This document shows, one piece after another, positions 10,402 to 64,000 of a DNA stretch of 64,000 nt. The position numbers were made by a program, and so were the translations under genes. Positions within the stretch are counted from its first letter, which is position 1. Each line of letters begins with the position of its first letter. Source of the DNA: an uncultured Collinsella sp. (GTDB lineage: Bacteria; Actinomycetota; Coriobacteriia; Coriobacteriales; Coriobacteriaceae). The DNA is taken from positions 1,609 through 65,608 of the forward strand of contig CATYEN010000007.1 in NCBI GenBank assembly GCA_958405565.1, in the 5' to 3' direction. The notes beneath the pieces are model-generated. The model had not been told where the DNA came from. It did not search any database and was given only the letters and a program-made list of their open reading frames with translations.

Positions 10402-10478
10402 GTCCCCATCGTCTAGCGGCCAAGGACGCCACCCTTTCAAGGTGGATATCGCGGGTTCGAATCCCGCTGGGGGCACCA
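10402..10478 (+). tRNA. tRNA-Glu (anticodon TTC), CCA encoded
   Basis: I folded the cloverleaf by hand. Acceptor GTCCCCA/TGGGGGC, D arm GTCT..GGAC, anticodon stem CCACC/GGTGG with loop CTTTCAA, T arm GCGGG-TTCGAAT-CCCGC, discriminator A, then CCA. Confidence 0.9.
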
Positions 10479-31695: not shown

Positions 31696-32376
31696 CTACT
31701 CCATCTCGTTGGCGGCCTGGAACCACACCACCGTGCCGATCACGCGCACGGGGCCGTCGTCCATGCCGAAGATCATGTCCTCGTAGTCCTCGAAGCTGTC
31801 CGCCGACAGCATCAGCTTGGTGCTGCCCTTGTACCAGCGGCGCATGACCGCGCGGTAGTCCTCGGTCTCCACCACGGCGATGGACCCGTTGGCGGGCTGG
31901 CGGTCGGGGTCGACCAGCACGTGGCTGCCCTCGGGTATGACGCGGTTCATGCAGTCGCCCTCGACCTCCAGAGCGAACGCGCGCGGGTGTCCGGCGCACA
32001 CGGACGCGGGCACCTCCACGCGGTGCGCTATCTCCTCCTCGTCGGCGAGCGAGCCGGCGTGCACGCGGCCGAGTGTGAGCAGCGGCACGGTTGCGCTGCT
32101 GGCCACCACGGGGATGGCGCCGGAGGGCATATACGGGCTGCCCTTGGGCTTTTTGGTCACGGGGTCGATGAACGACATCCCGTTATCTTCGATAATGTTG
32201 CTTTTAGAAATGCGAAAGTAGTCCGCAATCTTTTGTATCGAACCCATACGAGGTTCGGAAAAGCCGCCTTCCCACTGAGAGACGGCACCACGGGAAACGC
32301 CCGCAATCGAGGCAAGCTGCTCTTGCGTAACGCCGAACAGTTCCCGCAGTTGGATGATGTTCTCGCGAATGCCCAT
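31696..32376 (-). CDS. CI/LexA-like repressor (XRE HTH plus S24 peptidase domain)
   Basis: 226 aa with AGGAGG upstream. The HTH is QEQLASIAGVSRGAVSQWEGG. An Ala-Gly cleavage-site-like GRVHAGS is present. The S24 block reads EVEGDCMNRVIPEGSHVLVD...VMRRWYKG, with Cys where Ser is usual. Confidence 0.8.
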   Translation of the reverse strand: MGIRENIIQLRELFGVTQEQLASIAGVSRGAVSQWEGGFSEPRMGSIQKIADYFRISKSNIIEDNGMSFIDPVTKKPKGSPYMPSGAIPVVASSATVPLLTLGRVHAGSLADEEEIAHRVEVPASVCAGHPRAFALEVEGDCMNRVIPEGSHVLVDPDRQPANGSIAVVETEDYRAVMRRWYKGSTKLMLSADSFEDYEDMIFGMDDGPVRVIGTVVWFQAANEME

Positions 32377-32398
32377 AGCGACCTCCTGTTAACTTCTC

Positions 32399-32450
32399 TT
32401 GCATTTTATTGCAAAATTAACTTGACATGCAATGCTAGAAAAACTAACCT
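32399..32450. promoter_or_regulatory. Divergent cI/cro promoter-operator region
   Basis: Rightward promoter: TTGACA (32422-32427), 17 nt, TAACCT (32445-32450). Leftward promoter on the minus strand: TTGCAT (complement of 32427-32432), 18 nt, TAAAAT (complement of 32403-32408). The palindrome TTGCA-N6-TGCAA (32399-32414) covers the leftward -10. TTAACTT occurs twice (32389, 32417). Confidence 0.5.
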
Positions 32451-32486
32451 TTGAGACAGTTCGACAAGCGAAGGAGGTGATAAGGC

Positions 32487-32693
32487 TTGGCGAAGTTCAA
32501 AACTCTTCGCGAGGCACGCGAAGATGCAGGCTTCACGCAGCAATATATGGCCGATGAACTGGGCGTTTCTCGTCCCACTTATATGAAGATTGAGGAAAAG
32601 CCCGAAAATGCGAGCGTTTTACAGGCGCGCCGCATCTGCGAAATCTTGAGCCGTAGCTACGAAAGCATTTTTTTCGGCAGAAACGCTAGTTAA
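32487..32693 (+). CDS. Cro-like XRE-family HTH protein
   Basis: 68 aa with a TTG start after GAAGGAGG. The HTH is TQQYMADELGVSRPTYMKIE. Confidence 0.7.
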   Translation: MAKFKTLREAREDAGFTQQYMADELGVSRPTYMKIEEKPENASVLQARRICEILSRSYESIFFGRNAS

Positions 32694-32716
32694 ACTAACC
32701 CGAAGGGAGAACAACC

Positions 32717-33058
32717 ATGACCACCAAGAGCCACCAGCCCGAGTTCGTTGCGGATATCGTCGGCGAAACGCTCGACCGCATCACCGACAAGCGCAAGCAC
32801 GTGACGTTCCACTTCGAACCCGCTGAGAACGGCTGCATGGAGGAATCCAAGTACAGCATGATCGACCGCATCGTCTCCACGTGGGGCTTCGAAAGGAAGC
32901 GCGTCATTCCGCTAGAGGCCAGCATGAAGCAGCAGTTCGAACTCGGCGGCATGCAGTTCAACGTCTACGACTCCGTGCAGTTCAGCGTAAACGGCAAGGG
33001 CTGGAGCACCGACTTCAAGCGCATCGAGCGCGACAGCGCCTACGACGTGGAGGAGTAG
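32717..33058 (+). CDS. Hypothetical phage early protein
   Basis: 113-aa ORF with GAAGGGAG upstream. No motif recognised. Confidence 0.55.
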   Translation: MTTKSHQPEFVADIVGETLDRITDKRKHVTFHFEPAENGCMEESKYSMIDRIVSTWGFERKRVIPLEASMKQQFELGGMQFNVYDSVQFSVNGKGWSTDFKRIERDSAYDVEE

Positions 33059-33107
33059 GCCATGCTGAACGAGGTGACCGTACGGGGGGGGGTTCACCGC
33101 CCTCAAC

Positions 33108-33308
33108 GTGAAGAGCGGCAAGTGCGTGCTGCAGTTTGAGCTGGACCCGAAGTACAGGGACTTCATCCCGAAGCTGGTGGAGTTCACGGGCCAGATGCTC
33201 AACATCCACGTGTACGACGACCAGGAGGTGATGTTCGTGAACGAGGACACCGGGGAGTGCATCTACGAGGACGCCCCGCTTTCGCTGCCGGGCGTCGCGG
33301 GCGAATGA
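33108..33308 (+). CDS. Hypothetical phage early protein; probably begins at ATG 33062 but is interrupted by a G9 tract
   Basis: The track ORF starts at a GTG with no RBS. The ATG at 33062 has GGAGGAG upstream and would be in frame if the G9 run (33084-33092) were G8. Confidence 0.5.
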   Translation: MKSGKCVLQFELDPKYRDFIPKLVEFTGQMLNIHVYDDQEVMFVNEDTGECIYEDAPLSLPGVAGE

Positions 33309-33490
33309 CCCCGCAGCAGCGCGCCATGTGCCGCGAGCTGGCGGCCATGATGCGCGAGTTCTACAAGGACCCAGAGAACGAGAGGAAGTTCCAGGAATGG
33401 AAAAGATCGAGGGAAGGAGGGTGCGCGTCTCAGCCGGCAAGCGAGGGACGCGCACCGAAACGGTTCACTTCCGAACCGAGGACAGTGTAA
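33305..33490 (+). CDS. Hypothetical phage early protein
   Basis: ATGA overlap with the preceding ORF. Product: MTPQQRAMCRELAAMMREFYKDPENERKFQEW... Confidence 0.45.
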   Translation: MTPQQRAMCRELAAMMREFYKDPENERKFQEWKRSREGGCASQPASEGRAPKRFTSEPRTV

Positions 33491-33584
33491 CACCCGAGCA
33501 GCGCCGCGAGAGGCTGCAGGCCGTTTTCGCCGCCCTGTTCGTCTGCGCGTGCATCGCCGCCACATGGGCGCTGGAGGCAACAGC

Positions 33585-33983
33585 ATGGCCGAGGTAGACG
33601 CCAAGGCCCAGGCCCTCGTGGCCAAGGCGTGCGGCTGGGTTGCCTCGAACCCCGATACATGGGCGAAGCTGCGCCGCATCTGCTACCGCCTGATGCTGGA
33701 GGGCCACGTCATCCAGCGCGACAACGTGTACACCCTGGCGTGCCAGAACGGCATGACCGTGAGCGAGGCCAGCGAGTTCAAGCGCGACCACAACCTGTGG
33801 AGCGTGCTGTCCCGCTACATGGTGCTGCAGCGCCCCTCCATGCTGGCCGCCGTGAGCTTCCGCCGCACGCCGGTGGACTCCGTGGACCTGGTGGGCGCGT
33901 GGGAGGCCATCGTGGGCCCAGCCGTTTTCGCCGCCTCCACGCTAACCGAGGCGCAGGGCATCTACGACAGGGGCGCGCAATGA
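33585..33983 (+). CDS. Hypothetical phage early protein
   Basis: ATG at 33585 after GGAGG. It is coupled (ATGA) to the downstream rusA-like gene. Confidence 0.55.
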   Translation: MAEVDAKAQALVAKACGWVASNPDTWAKLRRICYRLMLEGHVIQRDNVYTLACQNGMTVSEASEFKRDHNLWSVLSRYMVLQRPSMLAAVSFRRTPVDSVDLVGAWEAIVGPAVFAASTLTEAQGIYDRGAQ

Positions 33984-34345
33984 GGTGCGCCGTCACGGTC
34001 GAGGGCCGAATGCCGAGCCTGAACGACTACATCAGCGCCGAGCGCGCCAACCGCTACAAGGCGGCGGCCATGAAGAAGCGCGAGACGGCGCGCGTGAGGG
34101 CGGCGGCCATGCAGCAGCGCGCGCCGCGCTTCGAGCGCCGGGTGACCGTGCGCACCACGTTCTACGAGCCCGACATGCGCCGCGACGCCGACAACGTGGG
34201 CTTCGCGCGCAAGTTCGTGCTCGACGGCCTGGTGGCGGCGGGCGTAATCAAGGACGACTCCCGCAAGTACGTGGAGCAGTGCCCCGACAGGGTGCTCACC
34301 GACAGGGCGCGCCCCCGCGTGGTCGTGGAGGTGAGCGACGAGTGA
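33980..34345 (+). CDS. rusA: RusA-like Holliday junction resolvase
   Basis: 121 aa. PSLNDY...RRDADNVGFARKFVLDGLVAAGVIKDDS matches the RusA acidic/DxDN core as I recall it. Confidence 0.65.
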   Translation: MRCAVTVEGRMPSLNDYISAERANRYKAAAMKKRETARVRAAAMQQRAPRFERRVTVRTTFYEPDMRRDADNVGFARKFVLDGLVAAGVIKDDSRKYVEQCPDRVLTDRARPRVVVEVSDE

Positions 34346-34899
34346 CCCGCCGAGACAAGGGCAGGCCACACAGGGCGTGGCGCAAGGCCGACCTCGACCG
34401 CATAGCCGAGCTGGCGGGAAAGGTGCCCGCCCGCGAGATTCGCCGCGAGCTGCGGCTGTCCAAGAACCAGTTGGATAACGCGCGGCGCGTGATCAACGCC
34501 AGCGGCGGCCACGTGTCCCTGCGCTGCTACCGCCACCGTCTGGAGCTGTGCCCGTCGTGCGGGTGCCGCAGGGCGACCCTCGGCAAGGACGGCATCTGCG
34601 AACCGTGCAGACGCCAGCAGCAGCTTGAGGCCATAGAGGCCCGCATAGCCGAGCTGCTGCCGAGGCTGACCGCAGAGGAGCGCCGCACCTACGAGCGCAC
34701 CGAGTGCGGCCGAGAGAGCCGCGCCGACCCCATGCCGCAGGCCCCGGACACCTCGGGCATGAGCCGCTACGCCGCCGACAAGGCAGCAGAGGCGCACGAC
34801 GAGGCCATGGAGCGGTGGCTGTGCCGCTACCTGTACCGCAGGGTCAAGGCGGCGCAGAAGCGCAAGGAGCGCATAGAGAAAAAAGTTCCGAAATCCTGA
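34342..34899 (+). CDS. Hypothetical phage protein with an HTH-like N-terminus and Cys4 motif
   Basis: GTG at 34342 overlaps the rusA stop. It carries CPSCGC...CEPC. Confidence 0.5.
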   Translation: MTRRDKGRPHRAWRKADLDRIAELAGKVPAREIRRELRLSKNQLDNARRVINASGGHVSLRCYRHRLELCPSCGCRRATLGKDGICEPCRRQQQLEAIEARIAELLPRLTAEERRTYERTECGRESRADPMPQAPDTSGMSRYAADKAAEAHDEAMERWLCRYLYRRVKAAQKRKERIEKKVPKS

Positions 34900-34941
34900 A
34901 AAGTTTTTATCACTTTTAGTTTTCCCAGTTAGGAGACCCAA

Positions 34942-35238
34942 ATGCTCACGGAAATCATCAGCAAGACCGTCGCGGACAAGACGGTGGACAGCATCCTGAA
35001 GCGCATCGAGCGCGCCGTCCCCGTGCCCGAGCCGGGCGACGGCGGCTTCGACGCCGCCATGCGCCAGGCGTTCAACATGGGGGCCGCCTGCATGGCCGCG
35101 CAAATCAAGAACGGCCCCGTGCCCACCAAGCGCATCGCGCTCATGGGCGAGGTGGCCCGCGTGGCGTGCCGCGCCCGCCTGGTGGGCATGGAGTGCCGCG
35201 TGGTCGTAGACGAGGAGGCCCGCGCATGCAATCGCTAG
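34942..35238 (+). CDS. Hypothetical phage protein
   Basis: 98-aa ORF with TAGGAG upstream. Confidence 0.5.
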   Translation: MLTEIISKTVADKTVDSILKRIERAVPVPEPGDGGFDAAMRQAFNMGAACMAAQIKNGPVPTKRIALMGEVARVACRARLVGMECRVVVDEEARACNR

Positions 35239-36509
35239 AGGAGGTCGCGATCTGCGACGTGTACCCCTACGAGCGCGCCGACGGCGAGCCGATGAACCCG
35301 CGCGACTTCACCACCAGGGAGAGCGCCGAGCACATCGCGGGCCTGGCCGCGCAGTTCAAGGCCAACCGCCTCAACCCCGGCCAGCCCGTCATGAAGCCCA
35401 TCCTGTACAAGGAGGGCGGCATCTACTGGATCATCGACGGCGAGTGCCGCGTGCGCGCCATGAGGGCCATCGGCACCGAGCGTTTCCTCGCCGAGGTCTA
35501 CGACGACCTGGACGACGCCGAGCTGGCGCGCGTCGAGGCGGCCAAGGCCATGGTGGAGACCGACGCCAAGCTGGGGCTGACCGCCGAGGAGAAGTCGCGC
35601 GGCGTGCAGACCATGCTGGCGCTCGACATCCCCGACGAGGAGGTGGCCGTGGCCGCCCGCACCGACGCGCGCACCGTGGCCAAGGCGCGCCGCGCGGCCC
35701 GCAGGGTGCAGGACGCCGCCTACGACATGACGCTCGACCGCCTGGCCGCCATCGCCGAGTTCGAGGGCGACGACGAGGCCGTGGCAGAGCTGCGCGACTG
35801 CAAGCAGTCCGAATGGCAGCGCGTGTACGCGGGCCTGAAGGCCAAGGCCGAGCAGAGGCGCAACCGCGCCGAGGTGGTGGCGGTGCTTGCCGACGCGGGC
35901 GTCGAGTTCGTCGACGAATGCCCCGAGGGCTTCGCCGCATGCCGCACGTTTTCCGACTACCGCCCCGACCTGGCGGCGCTGGACGCCTACGTGGCCGACA
36001 ACGCGGGCGCGGGGCTTCTGGCCGAGGAGACGTCGTTCGGCGTGACCCTGCTGGCGCCGGTGGCCGAGGGGGCCGACGAGGCCGCACAGGCCGCAGCCCA
36101 GCGCAAGGCCGACTTCCAGGCCGCCTACGAGGACGGCGCGAAGGCGCGTCGCGAGTGGCTTGCCGCCCACGCGGGCGACCTCAAGTCGATGCGCCGCACG
36201 GCGCTGGCGCTGACCTCGTTCGCCATGGAGGCCGAGGCCGTGGAATCGTTCGAGGAGCTGCTGGGCCGGCCCATCGACCGCACGCCCACCGAGCTGGCCG
36301 TGGCCATGGGCTGGCGGGCAGCGTGGGACATGAGCGGCTGGACGGCCTGGAGCCTCATGGAAGGCGGCAGCTCCGTGTACTTCAACCGAGTGACGGTCGA
36401 GAGCGTGACCATCATCTACGAGGCCATGAAGGCCGACGGCTACGAGCCGAACGCGGCCGAGACGGAAACCTACGAGGCGTGCATGGCGCGCCTGGGAAGC
36501 GAGGAGTAA
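35226..36509 (+). CDS. ParB N-terminal (ParB/Srx-like) domain protein
   Basis: ATG at 35226. The sequence KPILYKEGGIYWIIDGECRVRAMRAIG is a ParB-box-like GxxR motif. Confidence 0.6.
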   Translation: MQSLEEVAICDVYPYERADGEPMNPRDFTTRESAEHIAGLAAQFKANRLNPGQPVMKPILYKEGGIYWIIDGECRVRAMRAIGTERFLAEVYDDLDDAELARVEAAKAMVETDAKLGLTAEEKSRGVQTMLALDIPDEEVAVAARTDARTVAKARRAARRVQDAAYDMTLDRLAAIAEFEGDDEAVAELRDCKQSEWQRVYAGLKAKAEQRRNRAEVVAVLADAGVEFVDECPEGFAACRTFSDYRPDLAALDAYVADNAGAGLLAEETSFGVTLLAPVAEGADEAAQAAAQRKADFQAAYEDGAKARREWLAAHAGDLKSMRRTALALTSFAMEAEAVESFEELLGRPIDRTPTELAVAMGWRAAWDMSGWTAWSLMEGGSSVYFNRVTVESVTIIYEAMKADGYEPNAAETETYEACMARLGSEE

Positions 36510-58891: not shown

Positions 58892-58912
58892 ACCAGCGAG
58901 AGAGGAAACGGA

Positions 58913-59233
58913 ATGTTCTACCACCTTGTGCAGCAGCCCGAAGCGCCACAGGCGCTCGACGGCGCGCCGAAGCCGCCCGAGGCGCTTCCGGTGTTCGAGT
59001 GCATCAGCGACCCGGCCACGGCGCGGGCCATCGTGGAATCGGAAGACGTGTTCGAGTTCGACGGCAAGGGCGGCTTCACGCTCGTGTCCAGCCCCGTGGC
59101 CGTCATGGACGCGGAAGGCGGCGAGGCCAACGCCGTGGACTTCTCGGCGCTCACCGACGAGGAGATATGCGGGGTCCACAGAGCGCAGCCCGGCGACATG
59201 TTGCGGACACTTGCGCCCGAAGGGAAGGAGTGA
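58913..59233 (+). CDS. Hypothetical tail-region protein
   Basis: 106-aa ORF with AGAGGAAA upstream. Confidence 0.45.
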   Translation: MFYHLVQQPEAPQALDGAPKPPEALPVFECISDPATARAIVESEDVFEFDGKGGFTLVSSPVAVMDAEGGEANAVDFSALTDEEICGVHRAQPGDMLRTLAPEGKE

Positions 59234-59236
59234 GGC

Positions 59237-60139
59237 ATGGCAACGCACGAGCTTACGCTCAACCTCAAGAAGACCAACATAGCGCCGCCCGTCATCACCG
59301 TGCACCAGGGCGACAGCGCCGAGGTCCTGAAGGCCGCCATCTACGACGGCGACAAGAAGGCGGCCCTGACGGGCTGCAAGGTACACCTCATGGCCGCGAA
59401 GCCCGACCACACCTACGTGGAGCAGCAGTTCACGGGCATCAGCGACAACGTGGCCACCGTGACCGTCAACCCCGCCGTCTTCGGCGTGGCCGGGCTGCTC
59501 AAGGTGTGCTACGTGCGCGTGCGGAACGCGGCGGGGCTGGACGCCACCACCGAGAACGTACTGGTGAACGTGCTGCCATCGGCGAGCGCGTCGGGCGAGA
59601 TATCCGGCCCGTACGTCGATGCGGTGGAGGCGATCATCGCGAACCTCAAAGGGCAGCTAGCCGACGTGAGCGCGCTGAACGCGCAGATGCAGAAGGCCGA
59701 GGCCTCCCGCGCGAGCGCGGAAAACCAGCGCGCCGCGAACGAGAAGGCACGCCAGACCGCCGAAACCAAGCGCGCAGAGGCCGAGAAGAAGCGCGCCACG
59801 GCGGAAAGCGCCCGCGTCACCGAGGCGGCGCAGCTGAAGACGGCCTCGCAAGCCGCCACGGCTGCGGCAAACGGCGCGGCCTCGAACGCCGACGCGGCGG
59901 CCAACACCGCCCTGCAGATAGCCAACAGCGTGGCGCAGGGCAGCGCGGGCAGCTCGGACATGGCCAAGCAGAAGCAGCAGATAGCCGACCTGTACGGCAA
60001 GCTTGCCGACGTCACGAACGCGTTCATCTACGACGACGGCACCGTGTACTGCCCCGCCTCCAAGGCCAGCGCATCGGGCAGCACCGTCACGTTCGGGAGC
60101 ACCTGCACGGCGTCCGGCACAACCCTCAACCTCAAGTAG
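59237..60139 (+). CDS. BppU-like baseplate/fibre protein (Ig-like N-terminus plus Ala-rich coiled coil)
   Basis: 300 aa. The N-terminal block ITVHQGDSAEVLKAAIYDGDKKAALTGCKVHLMAAKPD resembles BppU_N. A long Ala/Gln/Glu coiled-coil region follows. Confidence 0.5.
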   Translation: MATHELTLNLKKTNIAPPVITVHQGDSAEVLKAAIYDGDKKAALTGCKVHLMAAKPDHTYVEQQFTGISDNVATVTVNPAVFGVAGLLKVCYVRVRNAAGLDATTENVLVNVLPSASASGEISGPYVDAVEAIIANLKGQLADVSALNAQMQKAEASRASAENQRAANEKARQTAETKRAEAEKKRATAESARVTEAAQLKTASQAATAAANGAASNADAAANTALQIANSVAQGSAGSSDMAKQKQQIADLYGKLADVTNAFIYDDGTVYCPASKASASGSTVTFGSTCTASGTTLNLK

Positions 60140-60151
60140 AAAGGCAACGAA

Positions 60152-61060
60152 ATGGCACAAGCGAAAACCCTGTCGGTGGGCGGCATCGGCTACGAGGTCA
60201 TCGACGATACCGCGCGCAGAAACGCGCAGACGGCGCTCAACAACGCCGAGTACAACCGCCAGGGCCAAATCGGCAAGTACGGCGGGCAGAACATCGCCAC
60301 CATCCTGGCGGGAGAGATCGGCAGCGGCAGCGTGTACGACGCGCTGCACAAGCGAGCCGCCAACGGCAACTTCGCGGGCCTGCGCGTGGGCGACTACCTG
60401 GACGTGCCGCTCGTGAGCGCATCCGCCGTCACCACCCAGCAATCTGTGCGGTTCCTGCTTGCCCACATCGACCCGTACCTCTACTGCGGCGACAACAGCA
60501 GGGGCCACCATATCGCGTTCGTGGCGTCCGCCCCCGTGGCCGTGGCGAAGACCGCGGCCGGCGTGGCAAACGACAGCTTCCTGATGTGGAACACGACCAA
60601 CACGAACCAGGGCACCGCCGACCGGAAATGCCCATACCCCAACAGCAACCTCAAGGCGTGGGAGACGGCCTTCGAGGCGTGCCTGCCCGAAGGGCTGACC
60701 AAGTACCTGCTGACCCAGCGCGTGCTGCTTGAGGAGCGTTACAGCGCCAGCGGCGCGCTCAACGACTCTAACTCGTGGAGCTGGCAGGATATCGGCAAGG
60801 TGTTCTCGCTGTCCGAGATGGAGGTGTACGGCTGCCCGGTGTGGGGCACCAAGGGCTACAGCGTCGGCTTCGACTGCCAGTGGGACCTGTTCCGCGACAC
60901 CGCGCACCGAATCAACGGAACTCGGTTCTATTGGTGGCTGCGTTCCGTCATGGGTGGCTCCTCGTCCTACGTGTGCTACGTCAGCGACTACGGCACTGCC
61001 ACCTGCACCTCGGCGACGTACGTCTGGGTTCGCCCCCGCCCCGGCTTCCTCGTCGGCTAG
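60152..61060 (+). CDS. DGR target protein (tail-fibre/receptor-binding candidate) with a C-terminal variable region
   Basis: 302 aa. The C-terminus ...FYWWLRSVMGGSSSYVCYVSDYGTATCTSATYVWVRPRPGFLVG looks like a CLec/FGE-type variable fold. Its last 129 nt before the final codons are repeated as the TR. Confidence 0.8.
   Translation: MAQAKTLSVGGIGYEVIDDTARRNAQTALNNAEYNRQGQIGKYGGQNIATILAGEIGSGSVYDALHKRAANGNFAGLRVGDYLDVPLVSASAVTTQQSVRFLLAHIDPYLYCGDNSRGHHIAFVASAPVAVAKTAAGVANDSFLMWNTTNTNQGTADRKCPYPNSNLKAWETAFEACLPEGLTKYLLTQRVLLEERYSASGALNDSNSWSWQDIGKVFSLSEMEVYGCPVWGTKGYSVGFDCQWDLFRDTAHRINGTRFYWWLRSVMGGSSSYVCYVSDYGTATCTSATYVWVRPRPGFLVG
60921..61049 (+). repeat. DGR variable repeat (VR)
   Basis: It aligns without gaps to 61660-61788. 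There are 17 mismatches, and 15 correspond to A in the TR. Confidence 0.85.
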
Positions 61061-61088
61061 CCAGCCGAGTGCTCTATACTTCTCTTTC

Positions 61089-61115
61089 GATGCGACCGCC
61101 TTGCGCGGTCGCATC
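61089..61115 (+). other. 11-bp-stem hairpin downstream of the VR (DGR target-recognition hairpin candidate)
   Basis: gatgcgaccgc-cttgc-gcggtcgcatc, starting 40 nt after the VR end. Confidence 0.5.
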
Positions 61116-61118
61116 CCT

Positions 61119-61143
61119 GCCCGCGCAGCGGGCCGTTTTTTTT
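61119..61143 (+). terminator. Rho-independent terminator after the DGR target gene
   Basis: gcccgc-gca-gcgggc, then cg plus T8. Confidence 0.7.
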
Positions 61144-61165
61144 GCCACTATTTCCGGGAGGTGCC

Positions 61166-61636
61166 ATGAGCGGCGTCTACCAGCGAAACCGCGAGGTGTC
61201 CGAGTACAAGTTCTTCACGCAGGCCATCGCCATCCGCGTGGAGGTCAACAAGCTCATGGCCTCCTCGTCGGTCGTGCCGAAAGCCTACAGGCTGCTGAAC
61301 GCGGTGCCCACGGTGGAGACCGCGCGCAGCATCGTATACAACGTCAACCGCGCCGACTGCTTCTACCCCAACAGTTCGTTCAACGCACTTGAGCGCAAGC
61401 GCTACCTGACGCTGGCGATAGCCGACTGCGAGCAGCTGATGCTCGACATGCAGTGCCTCATGGACATCGGCCTGCCCGTGAACGCCAACCGCTTCGAGGC
61501 GCTGGCGGGCATGGTCGAGGAGGAGATCAAACTGCTCAAGGGCGCGCGCAAGAACGTACGCGTCACCGGCAAGAAGACGACCGACGAGCGCATAGCCGAG
61601 GCCGAGGCCGAGCTAGAGCGCCTGCGTTCGTTATAA
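61166..61636 (+). CDS. avd: Avd-like accessory variability determinant (four-helix-bundle type)
   Basis: ATG at 61166 after GGGAGG. It is 156 aa, basic and helical, and lies between the target gene and the TR as in known DGRs. Confidence 0.6.
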   Translation: MSGVYQRNREVSEYKFFTQAIAIRVEVNKLMASSSVVPKAYRLLNAVPTVETARSIVYNVNRADCFYPNSSFNALERKRYLTLAIADCEQLMLDMQCLMDIGLPVNANRFEALAGMVEEEIKLLKGARKNVRVTGKKTTDERIAEAEAELERLRSL

Positions 61637-61659
61637 TGGGCGGCGGTCCCGCCTTGTAT

Positions 61660-61788
61660 ATCAGTACAATTGGTGGCTGCGTTCCGTCATGGGTGGCTCC
61701 TCGTCCAACGTGTGCTACGTCAACAACAACGGCAATGCCAACTACAATTCGGCGACGAACACCTGGGTTCGCCCCCGCCCCGGATTCC
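61660..61788 (+). repeat. DGR template repeat (TR)
   Basis: Non-coding copy of the VR. In the VR frame it reads ..QYNWWLRSVMGGSSSNVCYVNNNGNANYNSATNTWVRPRPG, rich in AAC/AAT codons. Confidence 0.85.
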
Positions 61789-62000
61789 CTTACTGCCAGA
61801 CCGAGTAGGCCAGCGGGCCGAAAGCAGAGCGCGGAGAGGAAGGAAGGCGCGACCATTGGGCGCGAGCCCGTAAATACGCACCCCGCGAGGGTGGCCGGAC
61901 GCTGCTTGCATGGCGCGGCGCTCCGTGGCTTCGCCGCGTTTCATGGCCATACCTCAAGCGGCTGTCAGAGCCACATTGCAAGCCGTGCGGGGTGCCTTCT

Positions 62001-63203
62001 ATGAACTCAGAGGAAAGGCGGGCGGCGCGCCGGAAGCGCCGCGAGGAGAAGCGCGCGAAAGCAAAGGCCGAGCGCGTCAAGGCGTGCACGCTTGAGACCG
62101 TGGCCGACCTTAACAGCCTGTGCAAGGCATCAAAGCAGGCCGCGCGCGGCGTGATGTGGAAGGCGTCCACGCAGCGGTACATGAGAAGCTACCTGCGCAA
62201 CGCCGTCCTTTCCCGCCGCGACCTTTTGGAGGGCCGCGACATATGCCGGGGCTTCATACGGTTCGACCTATGGGAGCGCGGCAAGCTGAGGCATATCAGC
62301 GCCGTGCACTTCCCCGAGCGCGTGGTGCAGAAGTCGCTGTCGCAGAACGCGCTCGTGCCCGCAATCGTGCCCACCCTCATAGCCGCGAACTCCGCGAACA
62401 TTAAAGGGCGCGGCACCGACTACGCCCTGAAGCTGCTCAAGCGCCACCTGGCCGACCACTGGAGGCGGCACGGCCGCGAGGGCTACATCCTCCTGGGCGA
62501 CTTCTCCGACTACTTCGCGCGCATAGCGCACCAACCCGTCAAAAACCAGGTGGCCTCCGCGCTGCTAGATCCGCGCGTGGTCGCCTTGGAACACCGTCTG
62601 ATAGACGCGCAGGGCGATGTGGGCTTGGGGCTGGGCAGCGAGCCGAACCAGATATGCGCCGTGGCCCACCCCAACCGCATCGACCACTATGTGACCGAGA
62701 TGCTGCGCCCCGAGGCCTACGGGCGATACATGGACGACTTCTACCTGATACACGAGTCCAAGGGCTACCTGCAGGTATGCCTGCTGCTCATAGAGTGCAA
62801 GTGCGCCGAGCTGGGCATCGAGCTGAACCCGCGCAAGACCCGCGTGGTGAAGCTCACGCGCGGTTTCACGTGGCTGAAGAAGCGCATCTTCTACACGGAG
62901 ACGGGCCGCATAGTCGTGAAGCCGTGCCGAGACTCCATAACGCGGGAGCGCCGCAAGCTCAAGAAGATGGCCCGCATGGTCGCCGATGGCATCATGACCC
63001 CCGGGCAGGTGGAGCAGAGCTACCAGAGCTGGCGCGGCGGCATGAAGCGGCTGGACGCGCACCGCAGCGTGCGGGCCATGGACGCGCTGTACCGCAGCCT
63101 GTTCGGAAATCCCGCGGGGGGGGTTGCTCAATGCAATCCAAACCTGGAGGCGACACGGATGGGAACATGCCCCTACCCTAGCAACGGAAGGAGCGACCCA
63201 TGA
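62001..63203 (+). CDS. DGR reverse transcriptase
   Basis: ORF 61992..63203, with the ATG at 62001. It has the RT motif 5 sequence YMDDFYL, the motif 4-like LGLGSEPNQ, and an N-terminal basic region. Confidence 0.8.
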   Translation: MNSEERRAARRKRREEKRAKAKAERVKACTLETVADLNSLCKASKQAARGVMWKASTQRYMRSYLRNAVLSRRDLLEGRDICRGFIRFDLWERGKLRHISAVHFPERVVQKSLSQNALVPAIVPTLIAANSANIKGRGTDYALKLLKRHLADHWRRHGREGYILLGDFSDYFARIAHQPVKNQVASALLDPRVVALEHRLIDAQGDVGLGLGSEPNQICAVAHPNRIDHYVTEMLRPEAYGRYMDDFYLIHESKGYLQVCLLLIECKCAELGIELNPRKTRVVKLTRGFTWLKKRIFYTETGRIVVKPCRDSITRERRKLKKMARMVADGIMTPGQVEQSYQSWRGGMKRLDAHRSVRAMDALYRSLFGNPAGGVAQCNPNLEATRMGTCPYPSNGRSDP

Positions 63204-63445
63204 CGGAACAGGAAATCGCCGGGGAGATCAACGGCTACAAACAGCAGCTTGAGCAGAGCGACTACAAGGTCATGAAGGCGGTGGAGCGCATCTTCTCCGC
63301 ATCATCCATCACCGACCTGCTCTCGGCCATCGCCGCAGCTGCCAAGGAGGTGGCCGAGATCATCTCGCAGCGCCAGACGTGGCGCGACCGCATCAACGAG
63401 CTGGAGGCCATGGAGCCCGACCAGCCGGAAGCGCCGCAGGAGTAG
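63200..63445 (+). CDS. Hypothetical protein
   Basis: ATGA overlap with the RT stop, with GGAAGGAG upstream. 81 aa, helical. Confidence 0.5.
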   Translation: MTEQEIAGEINGYKQQLEQSDYKVMKAVERIFSASSITDLLSAIAAAAKEVAEIISQRQTWRDRINELEAMEPDQPEAPQE

Positions 63446-63447
63446 CG

Positions 63448-63467
63448 AGCGCCCCTTCGGGGGCGCT
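63448..63467 (+). terminator. Hairpin followed by conserved box D (63466-63491)
   Basis: agcgcccc-ttcg-ggggcgct, then cttttcttttgcccggcgacacctcg. Confidence 0.65.
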
Positions 63468-63531
63468 TTTCTTTTGCCCGGCGACACCTCGCGGACAATC
63501 GCGGCAGCGATTCGAGGAGGTGAGAAAACGA

Positions 63532-63945
63532 ATGACCGACGTGCTGGAAATCTTCGCGCCGTACGGCCCCGGGTCGCTTTTCGGCGCGCTGCTCGTCCTG
63601 GTGGTCCTGTATTTCGGCAAGCAGTTCCTCGAAGAGTTCAAGGCCCAAAACGAGCGCAAGGCGAACATCGACCTCAAGCGCGAGGAGCGAAAGCAGGACG
63701 AGGTGAACGAGCGGGCGCAGCGCGACCGCGAGCGCAGCCAGATGGAGGGCCGCATCGCCGCGCAGATGGAGCGCAGTAACGCGCTGATGGAGGCCATGAA
63801 GGCGCTCATGGAGTCCGTCGTGACCTCCAACGAGGTGCTGCACGCCGACCTGGCGAACAGCCAGGCGCGCAGCCAGGGCATGGCGGCGAAGGTCGACCAC
63901 ATCGCCGACCGCGTCGACCTGCTCTACAAGGAATCGGCTCGATAG
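63532..63945 (+). CDS. Membrane-anchored coiled-coil protein (lysis-module candidate)
   Basis: ATG after GAGGAGG. One N-terminal hydrophobic helix (GSLFGALLVLVVLYFG) is followed by charged helices. Confidence 0.5.
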   Translation: MTDVLEIFAPYGPGSLFGALLVLVVLYFGKQFLEEFKAQNERKANIDLKREERKQDEVNERAQRDRERSQMEGRIAAQMERSNALMEAMKALMESVVTSNEVLHADLANSQARSQGMAAKVDHIADRVDLLYKESAR

Positions 63946-63958
63946 AAAGGAATCCGAA

Positions 63959-64000
63959 ATGACAGAAATGCAAGCAATCGCAGCCATCGTGCTGTCTTTC
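63959..64000 (+). CDS. Start of a hydrophobic small protein (holin candidate), truncated by the window edge
   Basis: ATG at 63959 after AAAGGA. Product so far: MTEMQAIAAIVLSF... Confidence 0.35.
   Translation, partial: MTEMQAIAAIVLSF

Follow-up and report, generated by a model that had tools for sequence, protein, structure and literature searches.

The stretch of DNA analysed here, referred to below as the window, comprises 64,000 nucleotides of contig CATYEN010000007.1 from an uncultured Collinsella sp. (assembly GCA_958405565.1), Collinsella being a genus of Coriobacteriia from the human gut, and the part of it with which we are concerned lies at 60152-63203, where the tail module of a prophage of siphovirus-like type comes to its end. 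The elements found there follow one another in the order target gene, avd, template repeat (TR) and reverse transcriptase (RT) gene, as in the architecture that phage BPP-1 from Bordetella displays (mtd-avd-TR-brt), and we argue, with a probability of roughly 0.93, that together they constitute a complete diversity-generating retroelement (DGR) of the BPP-1 type, in which a variable repeat (VR) ends the target gene. Its parts are as follows.

60152 to 61060, plus strand: DGR target gene, encoding a 302-aa DUF6273 protein whose C-terminal ~45 codons are the VR.
60921 to 61044, plus strand: VR, the putative recipient of mutagenised cDNA, matching the TR without gaps; 62 of 63 related VRs are distinct.
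61024 to 61049, plus strand: end of the VR resembling an initiation of mutagenic homing (IMH) sequence, a GC-rich block in common with the TR followed by VR-specific bases.
61089 to 61115, plus strand: GC-rich hairpin or cruciform candidate after the VR, with an 11-bp stem and a 5-nt loop in the predicted fold.
61166 to 61636, plus strand: gene for an Avd-like accessory protein of 156 aa, helical, with a pI of 8.8, assigned from its fold and from homology to the Avd of Roseburia phage Shimadzu.
61660 to 61788, plus strand: TR, the putative non-coding donor, with 27 adenines and, in the VR frame, nine AAY (Asn) codons; few, conserved alleles among relatives.
61791 to 62015, plus strand: RT-2 structured spacer RNA (Rfam RF03077), directly after the TR and overlapping the start of the RT gene.
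62001 to 63203, plus strand: DGR RT, 400 aa, with YMDD and LGSEPNQ motifs; ATG start at 62001, alternative GTG start at 61992.

The relationship between the two repeats carries most of the argument. A programmatic comparison aligns 60921-61049 with 61660-61788 over 129 nt without gaps and with 17 mismatches, reproducing exactly what an earlier note on this DNA had reported: 15 of the mismatches fall at TR adenines (five A>C, five A>G and five A>T) and two do not (TR 61748, T versus C; TR 61762, C versus T). Given 27 A among the 129 nt of the TR, the bias is highly significant (Fisher P = 1.3e-10). No substitution of any TR adenine can create a stop codon when the TR is read in the VR frame. 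The TR lies outside coding genes, between the avd stop codon and the structured RNA; when compared by blastn with the entire window it has a single VR partner (E 1.4e-34), and neither blastn nor a degenerate pattern with every A replaced by N revealed a second VR in the 64 kb. Both repeats contain the same 21-nt block, CTGGGTTCGCCCCCGCCCCGG (VR 61024-61044; TR 61763-61783), and the similarity ends a few bases beyond it, first with a fixed C/A difference and then with divergence, so that the common GC-rich block which the earlier note had described is confirmed, as is the non-identity of the TR end with the GC-rich VR end. By analogy with the IMH of BPP-1 (PMC5758913), we refer to 61024-61049 as IMH-like. 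The 11-bp hairpin that had been proposed downstream of it is likewise borne out; almost all of 74 related sequences retain its core, GCGACCGC...GCGGTCGC (one has a variant 3' arm), which survives in the divergent loci L081-L083 despite different flanks, and one stem pair is altered on both sides, from T-A to G-C. This hairpin follows the VR only, the TR being followed by the RT-2 RNA instead.

For comparison, we compiled a family set of 63 copies (the window and 62 related loci, all from Collinsella genomes) from which both repeats could be extracted in register, and scored TR/VR differences within the 124-nt repeat. No fewer than 658 of the 678 differences (97%) lie at TR adenines, with a spectrum of 352 A>G, 183 A>C and 123 A>T, and each conserved TR adenine is altered in 19-66% of the copies; the VRs are nearly all distinct, and there are few TR alleles. 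In 11 columns where the TR is polymorphic for reasons other than an adenine, the VR has the state of its own TR in 691 of 693 cells, as compared with 60% agreement with the TR of another copy; the window is one of the two exceptions. Since the VR equals its own TR at non-adenine sites, each lineage shows a flow of non-adenine information between its TR and VR alongside scrambled adenines, as mutagenic retrohoming predicts, and on these sequence comparisons the family pattern reads as the signature of its repeated action. Some features of the set deserve separate mention. Six metagenomic or metagenome-assembled contigs (L018, L021, L022, L025, L029 and L046) end inside the VR and one (L037) inside the TR, as would be expected if the repeats had broken the assembly or if the VR was heterogeneous in the populations sampled. 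L026 and L030 are related DGR prophages in one complete Collinsella genome (NZ_AP031421.1), with VRs differing at 15 positions, and L061 and L062 stand on a single contig with identical VRs, which may reflect duplication or misassembly.

The RT gene that follows the TR, noticed earlier for its YMDD, encodes a protein matching Pfam RVT_1 and phrog_1423 (E 2.5e-62). Its best match in the PDB is the RT of BPP-1 (bRT, 8ub7; E 1.5e-10), a group II maturase being far weaker (E 2e-4). Of the two bRT residues shown to promote adenine mutagenesis, R74 and I181 (PMC7826257), the window RT has equivalents at both conserved positions, the arginine itself in the first case and a leucine in the second. The closest annotated phage RTs are those of Shimadzu (53% identical), Taranis, Pioen and nd12, for which records or papers describe DGR components or targets. 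On these two grounds, the best PDB match and the nearest phage relatives, we would place the enzyme in the DGR clade. Its first 30 residues (62001-62090) form a Lys/Arg-rich N-terminal extension, MNSEERRAARRKRREEKRAKAKAERVKA, which falls outside the alignments to the annotated phage RTs, these beginning at about residue 30; the RT of BPP-1, at 328 aa, is shorter.

Comparisons of this kind also bear on the notion that the repeats are an ordinary duplication or gene-conversion pair subject to normal mutation, with an RT that happens to come from an unrelated retron, group II intron or defence system. What speaks for it is a series of weak generic matches of the RT to group II, retron and DRT models of NCBIfam and PADLOC. 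These lie far under the family cutoffs, however (42 bits versus 300 for group II, for example), and PADLOC made no defence-system assignment. Moreover, ordinary mutation does not account for the adenine specificity seen in the window and in the family differences, the best structural relative of the RT is a DGR RT, and all the RT-2-positive loci that were examined have this RNA placed between TR and RT. We regard this possibility as practically negligible and as refuted by the adenine bias and the RT comparisons. The call of a complete DGR made in the earlier note is thus supported, as is its BPP-1-like layout: none of the refutation tests named there refuted it, the adenine bias being strong in the window and in the 63 copies alike, the TR proving to be non-coding and the RT being closest to a DGR enzyme.

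Between target and TR, the small basic helical ORF singled out earlier encodes a protein whose AlphaFold2 (AF2) model (pLDDT 86) is a helical bundle, with five helices of at least 17 residues and a short one at residues 6-10. Foldseek returns as top matches 2gsc, 2rld (deposited under a "23S ribosomal protein family" name, which we take to denote PF05635) and, from 8ub7, the Avd chains of BPP-1, with TM-scores of 0.83-0.85. Over its full length the protein is 26% identical to the annotated Avd of Shimadzu (E 1e-12), and four of its 47 homologues weakly match PF05635 (best E 2.3e-4), the 23S_rRNA_IVP / Avd family. The model and the homology together lead us to call it Avd-like. Compared with the 128-aa Avd of BPP-1 it is longer, at 156 aa, with an extra C-terminal helix.

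The earlier inventory of parts was right, except that it overlooked the RNA lying between TR and RT. A cmscan search matches the full RT-2 model (positions 1-222) with 140.8 bits against a gathering score of 40. RT-2 takes the same position at seven other loci (L001, L064, L081, Shimadzu, Pioen, Taranis and MT835543), all of which encode a related RT and three of which are phages reported to carry a DGR; two phages of Faecalibacterium, Taranis and Pioen, and a phage from a gut metagenome have it just upstream of the RT gene, and it was not found there in phage nd12. In an alignment of six loci, 18 of 39 predicted pairs show compensatory changes. RT-2 is one of 19 RT-associated motifs that were published without an assigned role, only RT-10 among them being linked to a DGR, that of BPP-1 (PMC5737381). 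In the window it occupies the position of the BPP-1 spacer ("Sp") region, and this analogy suggests that the orphan motif may be the spacer or scaffold RNA of a large gut-phage DGR clade and the counterpart of Sp (RT-10), a proposal that we consider safer than the trans-writing scenario discussed below. If so, RT-2 would provide a second, well-covarying RNA family for studying the priming of DGRs.

The closest annotated relative of the whole cassette is the DGR of Shimadzu (LR596903), in which orf22 encodes the tail fibre, orf23 Avd and orf24 the RT. It has the same order of target, Avd, TR, RT-2 RNA (144.9 bits) and RT, its target being 34% identical to ours over the DUF6273 region, and it is reported to have mutated the tail fibre during evolution in mice (PMC6563222; PMC11792537); the Collinsella element is hence homologous, part by part, to a DGR that is reportedly active. 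The two differ in that the host of Shimadzu belongs to the Firmicutes and that of the window to the Actinobacteria, in that the Shimadzu tail has a baseplate of the J / P2_I type whereas the window has a tape measure protein, Dit, Tal and BppU module, and in that Shimadzu is reported to diversify two proteins (PMC11792537) whereas a single VR was found in our 64 kb. More distant are the Faecalibacterium phages Taranis, Pioen, Roos, Lelie and CP11 and the phages nd4 and nd12, whose VR likewise lies in a DUF6273 target, where it forms the domain's C-terminal end. Their RTs are 30-34% identical to that of the window, with sequences much further removed; the RT-2 RNAs of Taranis and Pioen score 175 bits, and some of these DGRs have two targets or immunoglobulin (Ig)-domain architectures. 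The window resembles BPP-1, the prototype, in the order of its genes, in the adenine specificity of its TR-to-VR differences, in the GC-rich end that is IMH-like, in an inverted repeat that follows only the VR and in an Avd-like helical bundle (TM 0.85); its spacer RNA is of the RT-2 rather than the RT-10 family.

Residues 157-295 of the target protein match Pfam PF19789 (DUF6273) with 30.2 bits against a gathering cutoff of 23.5, and all close homologues carry a precomputed match to the same family. In the AF2 model (pLDDT 91.9, from a 78-sequence alignment) the VR corresponds to strands at 260-267, 273-277 and 283-287, and Foldseek retrieves DUF6273, receptor-binding protein and tail-fibre models of gut phages, down to E 8e-16, as well as the DUF6273 N-terminal domain of the T. 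ramosa IgA peptidase (9qa6, E 4e-5); a sequence search of the PDB was empty. Among 120 close homologues, entropy reaches 2.7-3.6 bits at residues 260, 273, 278-280, 282, 284, 286 and 290 and is mostly below 1 bit, and at most 2.3, elsewhere, the hypervariable residues being the AAY-templated positions only.

The earlier note placed the target after a BppU-like fibre gene, and a BppU_N domain was indeed found there:

59237 to 60139, plus strand: upstream tail/baseplate gene with a BppU N-terminal domain (Pfam BppU_N, E 1.8e-10).

The product of this gene is the probable carrier of the target protein. Single-chain proteins that combine BppU_N with DUF6273 occur in phages of related Coriobacteriia (P0260, 510 aa; P0330, 470 aa), and by the Rosetta-stone argument these fusions favour the view that the target and the BppU-like protein are physically linked. 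Given these neighbours, the diversified protein would most plausibly bind the receptor. It could instead be an adhesin on the virion surface directed at mucus, glycans or immunoglobulin, or serve some role other than adsorption, as one might suspect from the fact that an IgA peptidase supplies, in its N-terminal domain, the one DUF6273 structure that has been solved and from reports that some phage DGR targets are Ig-like decoration proteins (PMC11792537). Yet the target closes the series tape measure, Dit, Tal, BppU, target, its immediate predecessor being the BppU_N protein with which its domain is elsewhere fused; its structural neighbours include proteins annotated as receptor-binding or tail-fibre proteins; its Shimadzu homologue is annotated as a tail fibre, and that tail fibre is the one reported to be mutated by the DGR during a phage-host arms race. 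A different ligand or role therefore strikes us as rather improbable, and a receptor-binding function as the likelier assignment.

A second matter concerning the target is that proteins of 493 or 494 aa (P0002, P0016, P0018, P0024, P0026, P0027 and P0042) look like target-Avd fusions; we rejected this candidate architecture, as a frameshift in the VR or in a C-run reads through into avd in these sequences and no genuine fusion is involved. In the window, target and avd share a frame, 61061-61165 is free of stop codons and only the TAG at 61058 stands between them. A further hairpin lies in the same interval:

61119 to 61143, plus strand: intrinsic-terminator-like hairpin followed by a T8 run, between the target gene and avd.

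Its T-run (61136-61143) varies from T5 to T8 among related loci and thereby shifts the relative frame of target and avd.

Several observations weigh against the reading proposed at the outset. First, the signature motif of DGR RTs is [I/V/L]GxxxSQ, in place of QGxxxSP (PMC7826257), and the window RT has LGSEPNQ, in which the first L and the last Q fit but S is replaced by N; Shimadzu has the canonical LGSETSQ and Taranis LGVEPSQ. The variant is nonetheless shared without exception by the 83 related loci in which the motif was located; among the 150 closest 50%-identity representatives, 122 RTs have a recognisable motif, of which 92 show S at the position, 18 show N and 8 show C; and the adenine bias is normal in the clade with the N variant. 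We accordingly dismissed NQ as a special feature, since it recurs in the RT clade and is ordinary variation. Second, the accessory protein has no significant Pfam match (the PF05635 profile does not match it even at E <= 1), PHROG and NCBIfam likewise yielded nothing of note, and single-sequence and profile searches of the PDB were empty or gave a chance match to Cactin; it is also only mildly basic, with its pI of 8.8 against 9.5 +/- 0.7 for Avd proteins, and less basic than the Avd of BPP-1. Third, the hairpin lies ~40 nt past the IMH-like block, whereas the required 24-bp element of BPP-1 is immediately downstream of its IMH.

Fourth, the target of BPP-1 is Mtd, and the fold search of the PDB with the DUF6273 target retrieved neither Mtd nor TvpA and matched C-type lectins only weakly (E > 2). 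A check for a C-type lectin fold in the target, which the earlier note had proposed, thus gave DUF6273 matches but did not recover that fold directly, and the C-type lectin point rests on literature reporting that DUF6273 domains serve as DGR targets and have a fold like that of C-lectins (PMC10743442, PMC11792537). Fifth, at TR positions 61663, 61748, 61761 and 61762 the window VR is unlike the template offered by the present TR. From this mismatch it follows that homing has not overwritten the VR since the TR changed, and hence that this particular copy may, but need not, be active at present.

The last point can be pursued further. The pairing of TR and VR proposed at the outset was correct, but what had escaped attention is that in the window they derive from different alleles. 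At the four sites just listed, the window VR has the state of the common TR alleles and the window TR is a minority allele, such that the VR is in full accord with what the TR allele of ten other loci could template, and not with what its own could. In addition, the A/C difference at 61784/61045 (A in the TR, C in the VR) is invariant in all copies and is therefore a fixed donor/recipient difference, not a product of mutagenesis. Setting aside this fixed site and the allelic ones, ~12 of the 15 adenine differences that had all been ascribed to mutagenesis can be so ascribed unambiguously.

It thus appears, from the allele comparison, that the VR was last written from a TR allele other than its present neighbour, most likely because related prophages recombined after the last homing and exchanged the avd-TR segment; on this account, the two non-adenine mismatches would not be RT errors. 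Comparison of the cassette (60152-63203) with L001, L050 and L072 reveals its relatives to be mosaic. L050 is 98-99% identical to the window from the post-VR spacer through avd and RT-2 and 90% in the target, and L001 is 99.8% identical in the 3' half of the RT gene and 91% in target and avd. Such mosaicism suggests that the relatives recombine often and that the breakpoints lie close to the VR and within the RT gene. One could also imagine that a second, sibling DGR prophage residing in the same cell supplied the TR and RT that wrote the VR in trans, which, if true, would amount to cross-talk between DGRs in one cell. Co-residence has a precedent in the complete Collinsella genome that harbours two such prophages (L026 and L030), but we consider this scenario quite doubtful.

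A more sober possibility is that the copy looks intact and is silent, its VR being the frozen product of a past homing event in a prophage that no longer diversifies. Precisely the features just described, namely a VR that carries the state of other TR alleles at four sites and fits the TR of ten other loci, and the lack of homing since the avd-TR segment of the mosaic cassette changed, are what one would expect in that case. Against this, all parts are full length and close to those of relatives, the RT being 99% identical to that of L001; YMDD and LGSEPNQ, the RT-2 RNA at well above its gathering score, the hairpin and the IMH-like block are all intact; and a single missed update says nothing about capacity. 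Homing of DGRs is generally rare per generation. We hold such silence to be unlikely, though by no means far-fetched.

How such an element would operate can be outlined by reference to known DGRs. An RNA spanning the TR and the adjoining RT-2 structure would be bound by the RT together with the Avd-like protein. Synthesis of cDNA would then begin near the 3' end of the TR and proceed faithfully except opposite adenines, where any base may be inserted. At the 3' end of the target gene, the cDNA would take the place of the VR, which is presumably marked as recipient by the GC-rich IMH-like block and the downstream hairpin. As a result, up to ~20 codons would be randomised, including the nine Asn AAY codons, each of which can give 15 residues, on what the model predicts to be a beta-hairpin surface. 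This surface belongs to the C-terminal DUF6273 domain of the putative tail-tip protein, 302 aa in length, which comes after the BppU-like protein and probably rides on it. The phage could thereby alter its binding, with ~4.7e14 possible protein variants as calculated from the TR read in the target frame.

As to the surrounding prophage, the GC content of the window rises from ~0.60-0.62 to 0.65-0.69 at ~32-36 kb, and this step (~32000-36000) is the probable left end of the prophage. Past it come genes for DUF1351, a single-stranded DNA-binding protein, a Phg_2220_C replication protein, the large terminase, the portal and minor capsid protein 2, and then those for the tape measure, Prophage_tail and BppU_N. 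After the DGR there are only small ORFs up to the end of the window at 64000. What comes next in relatives is a group of lysis genes (L081-L083), and ~2.3 kb past the RT gene there is a tmRNA gene in L001 (9501-9864, minus strand) and there are three tRNA genes in L064 (9505-9806); this tmRNA/tRNA region is probably the right attachment region of the prophage, beyond the end of the window. A tRNA-Glu gene (10402-10478) lies in the host part of the window, and no integrase was identified among the window ORFs tested.

Three sequences downstream of the repeats were considered and set aside. The TR segment 61681-61701 has a 21-nt inverted match to 63189-63209 (minus strand; 20/21, E 3.9e-4), at the junction of the RT stop codon and the start of the next ORF; we rejected it as an RNA pairing partner, because the downstream copy is unchanged in loci with a different TR allele and the complementarity is thus not maintained. 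The ORF at 63200-63445 that overlaps the RT stop codon was rejected as a conserved part of the DGR, for it has no similarity to the ORFs at the same position in Shimadzu and Pioen. At 63444-63477, a sub-threshold Rfam match to ctRNA_p42d (21 bits versus 50, E 0.33) is almost certainly a terminator-like hairpin after an 81-aa ORF.

The element is ordinary, and its biology does not depart from known DGR behaviour. It belongs to a large clade of gut-phage DGRs with DUF6273 targets and RT-2 RNA; DGRs of gut phages with DUF6273 targets have been described before, and we agree with the earlier view that, DGRs being well known, novelty is limited. Literature searches returned no paper on a DGR of Collinsella, the sole joint mention being one of CspRecT from Collinsella stercoris. 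A megablast of 58900-64000 against 50,697 phage records gave no match, the phage relatives discussed above having come from a protein-mode search. By way of the RT, we confirmed 421 loci in species-representative, one-genome-per-species bacterial collections; the best 80 of these 421 are nearly all from Collinsella, which establishes the host, and some protein clusters of the family have thousands of members.

Taken as a whole, these results leave our understanding of the DGR mechanism unchanged. What they provide is a correct label for ~3 kb of a Collinsella prophage and, through annotation, the protein most likely to set its host range. For the specialist, the comparison of 63 copies yields as a by-product a view of the flow of non-adenine information from TR to VR and of the frequent recombination breakpoints inside the cassette. 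Beyond the single copy, this DGR family is very common, and it is probably a major source of tail variation in the phages of an abundant gut genus.

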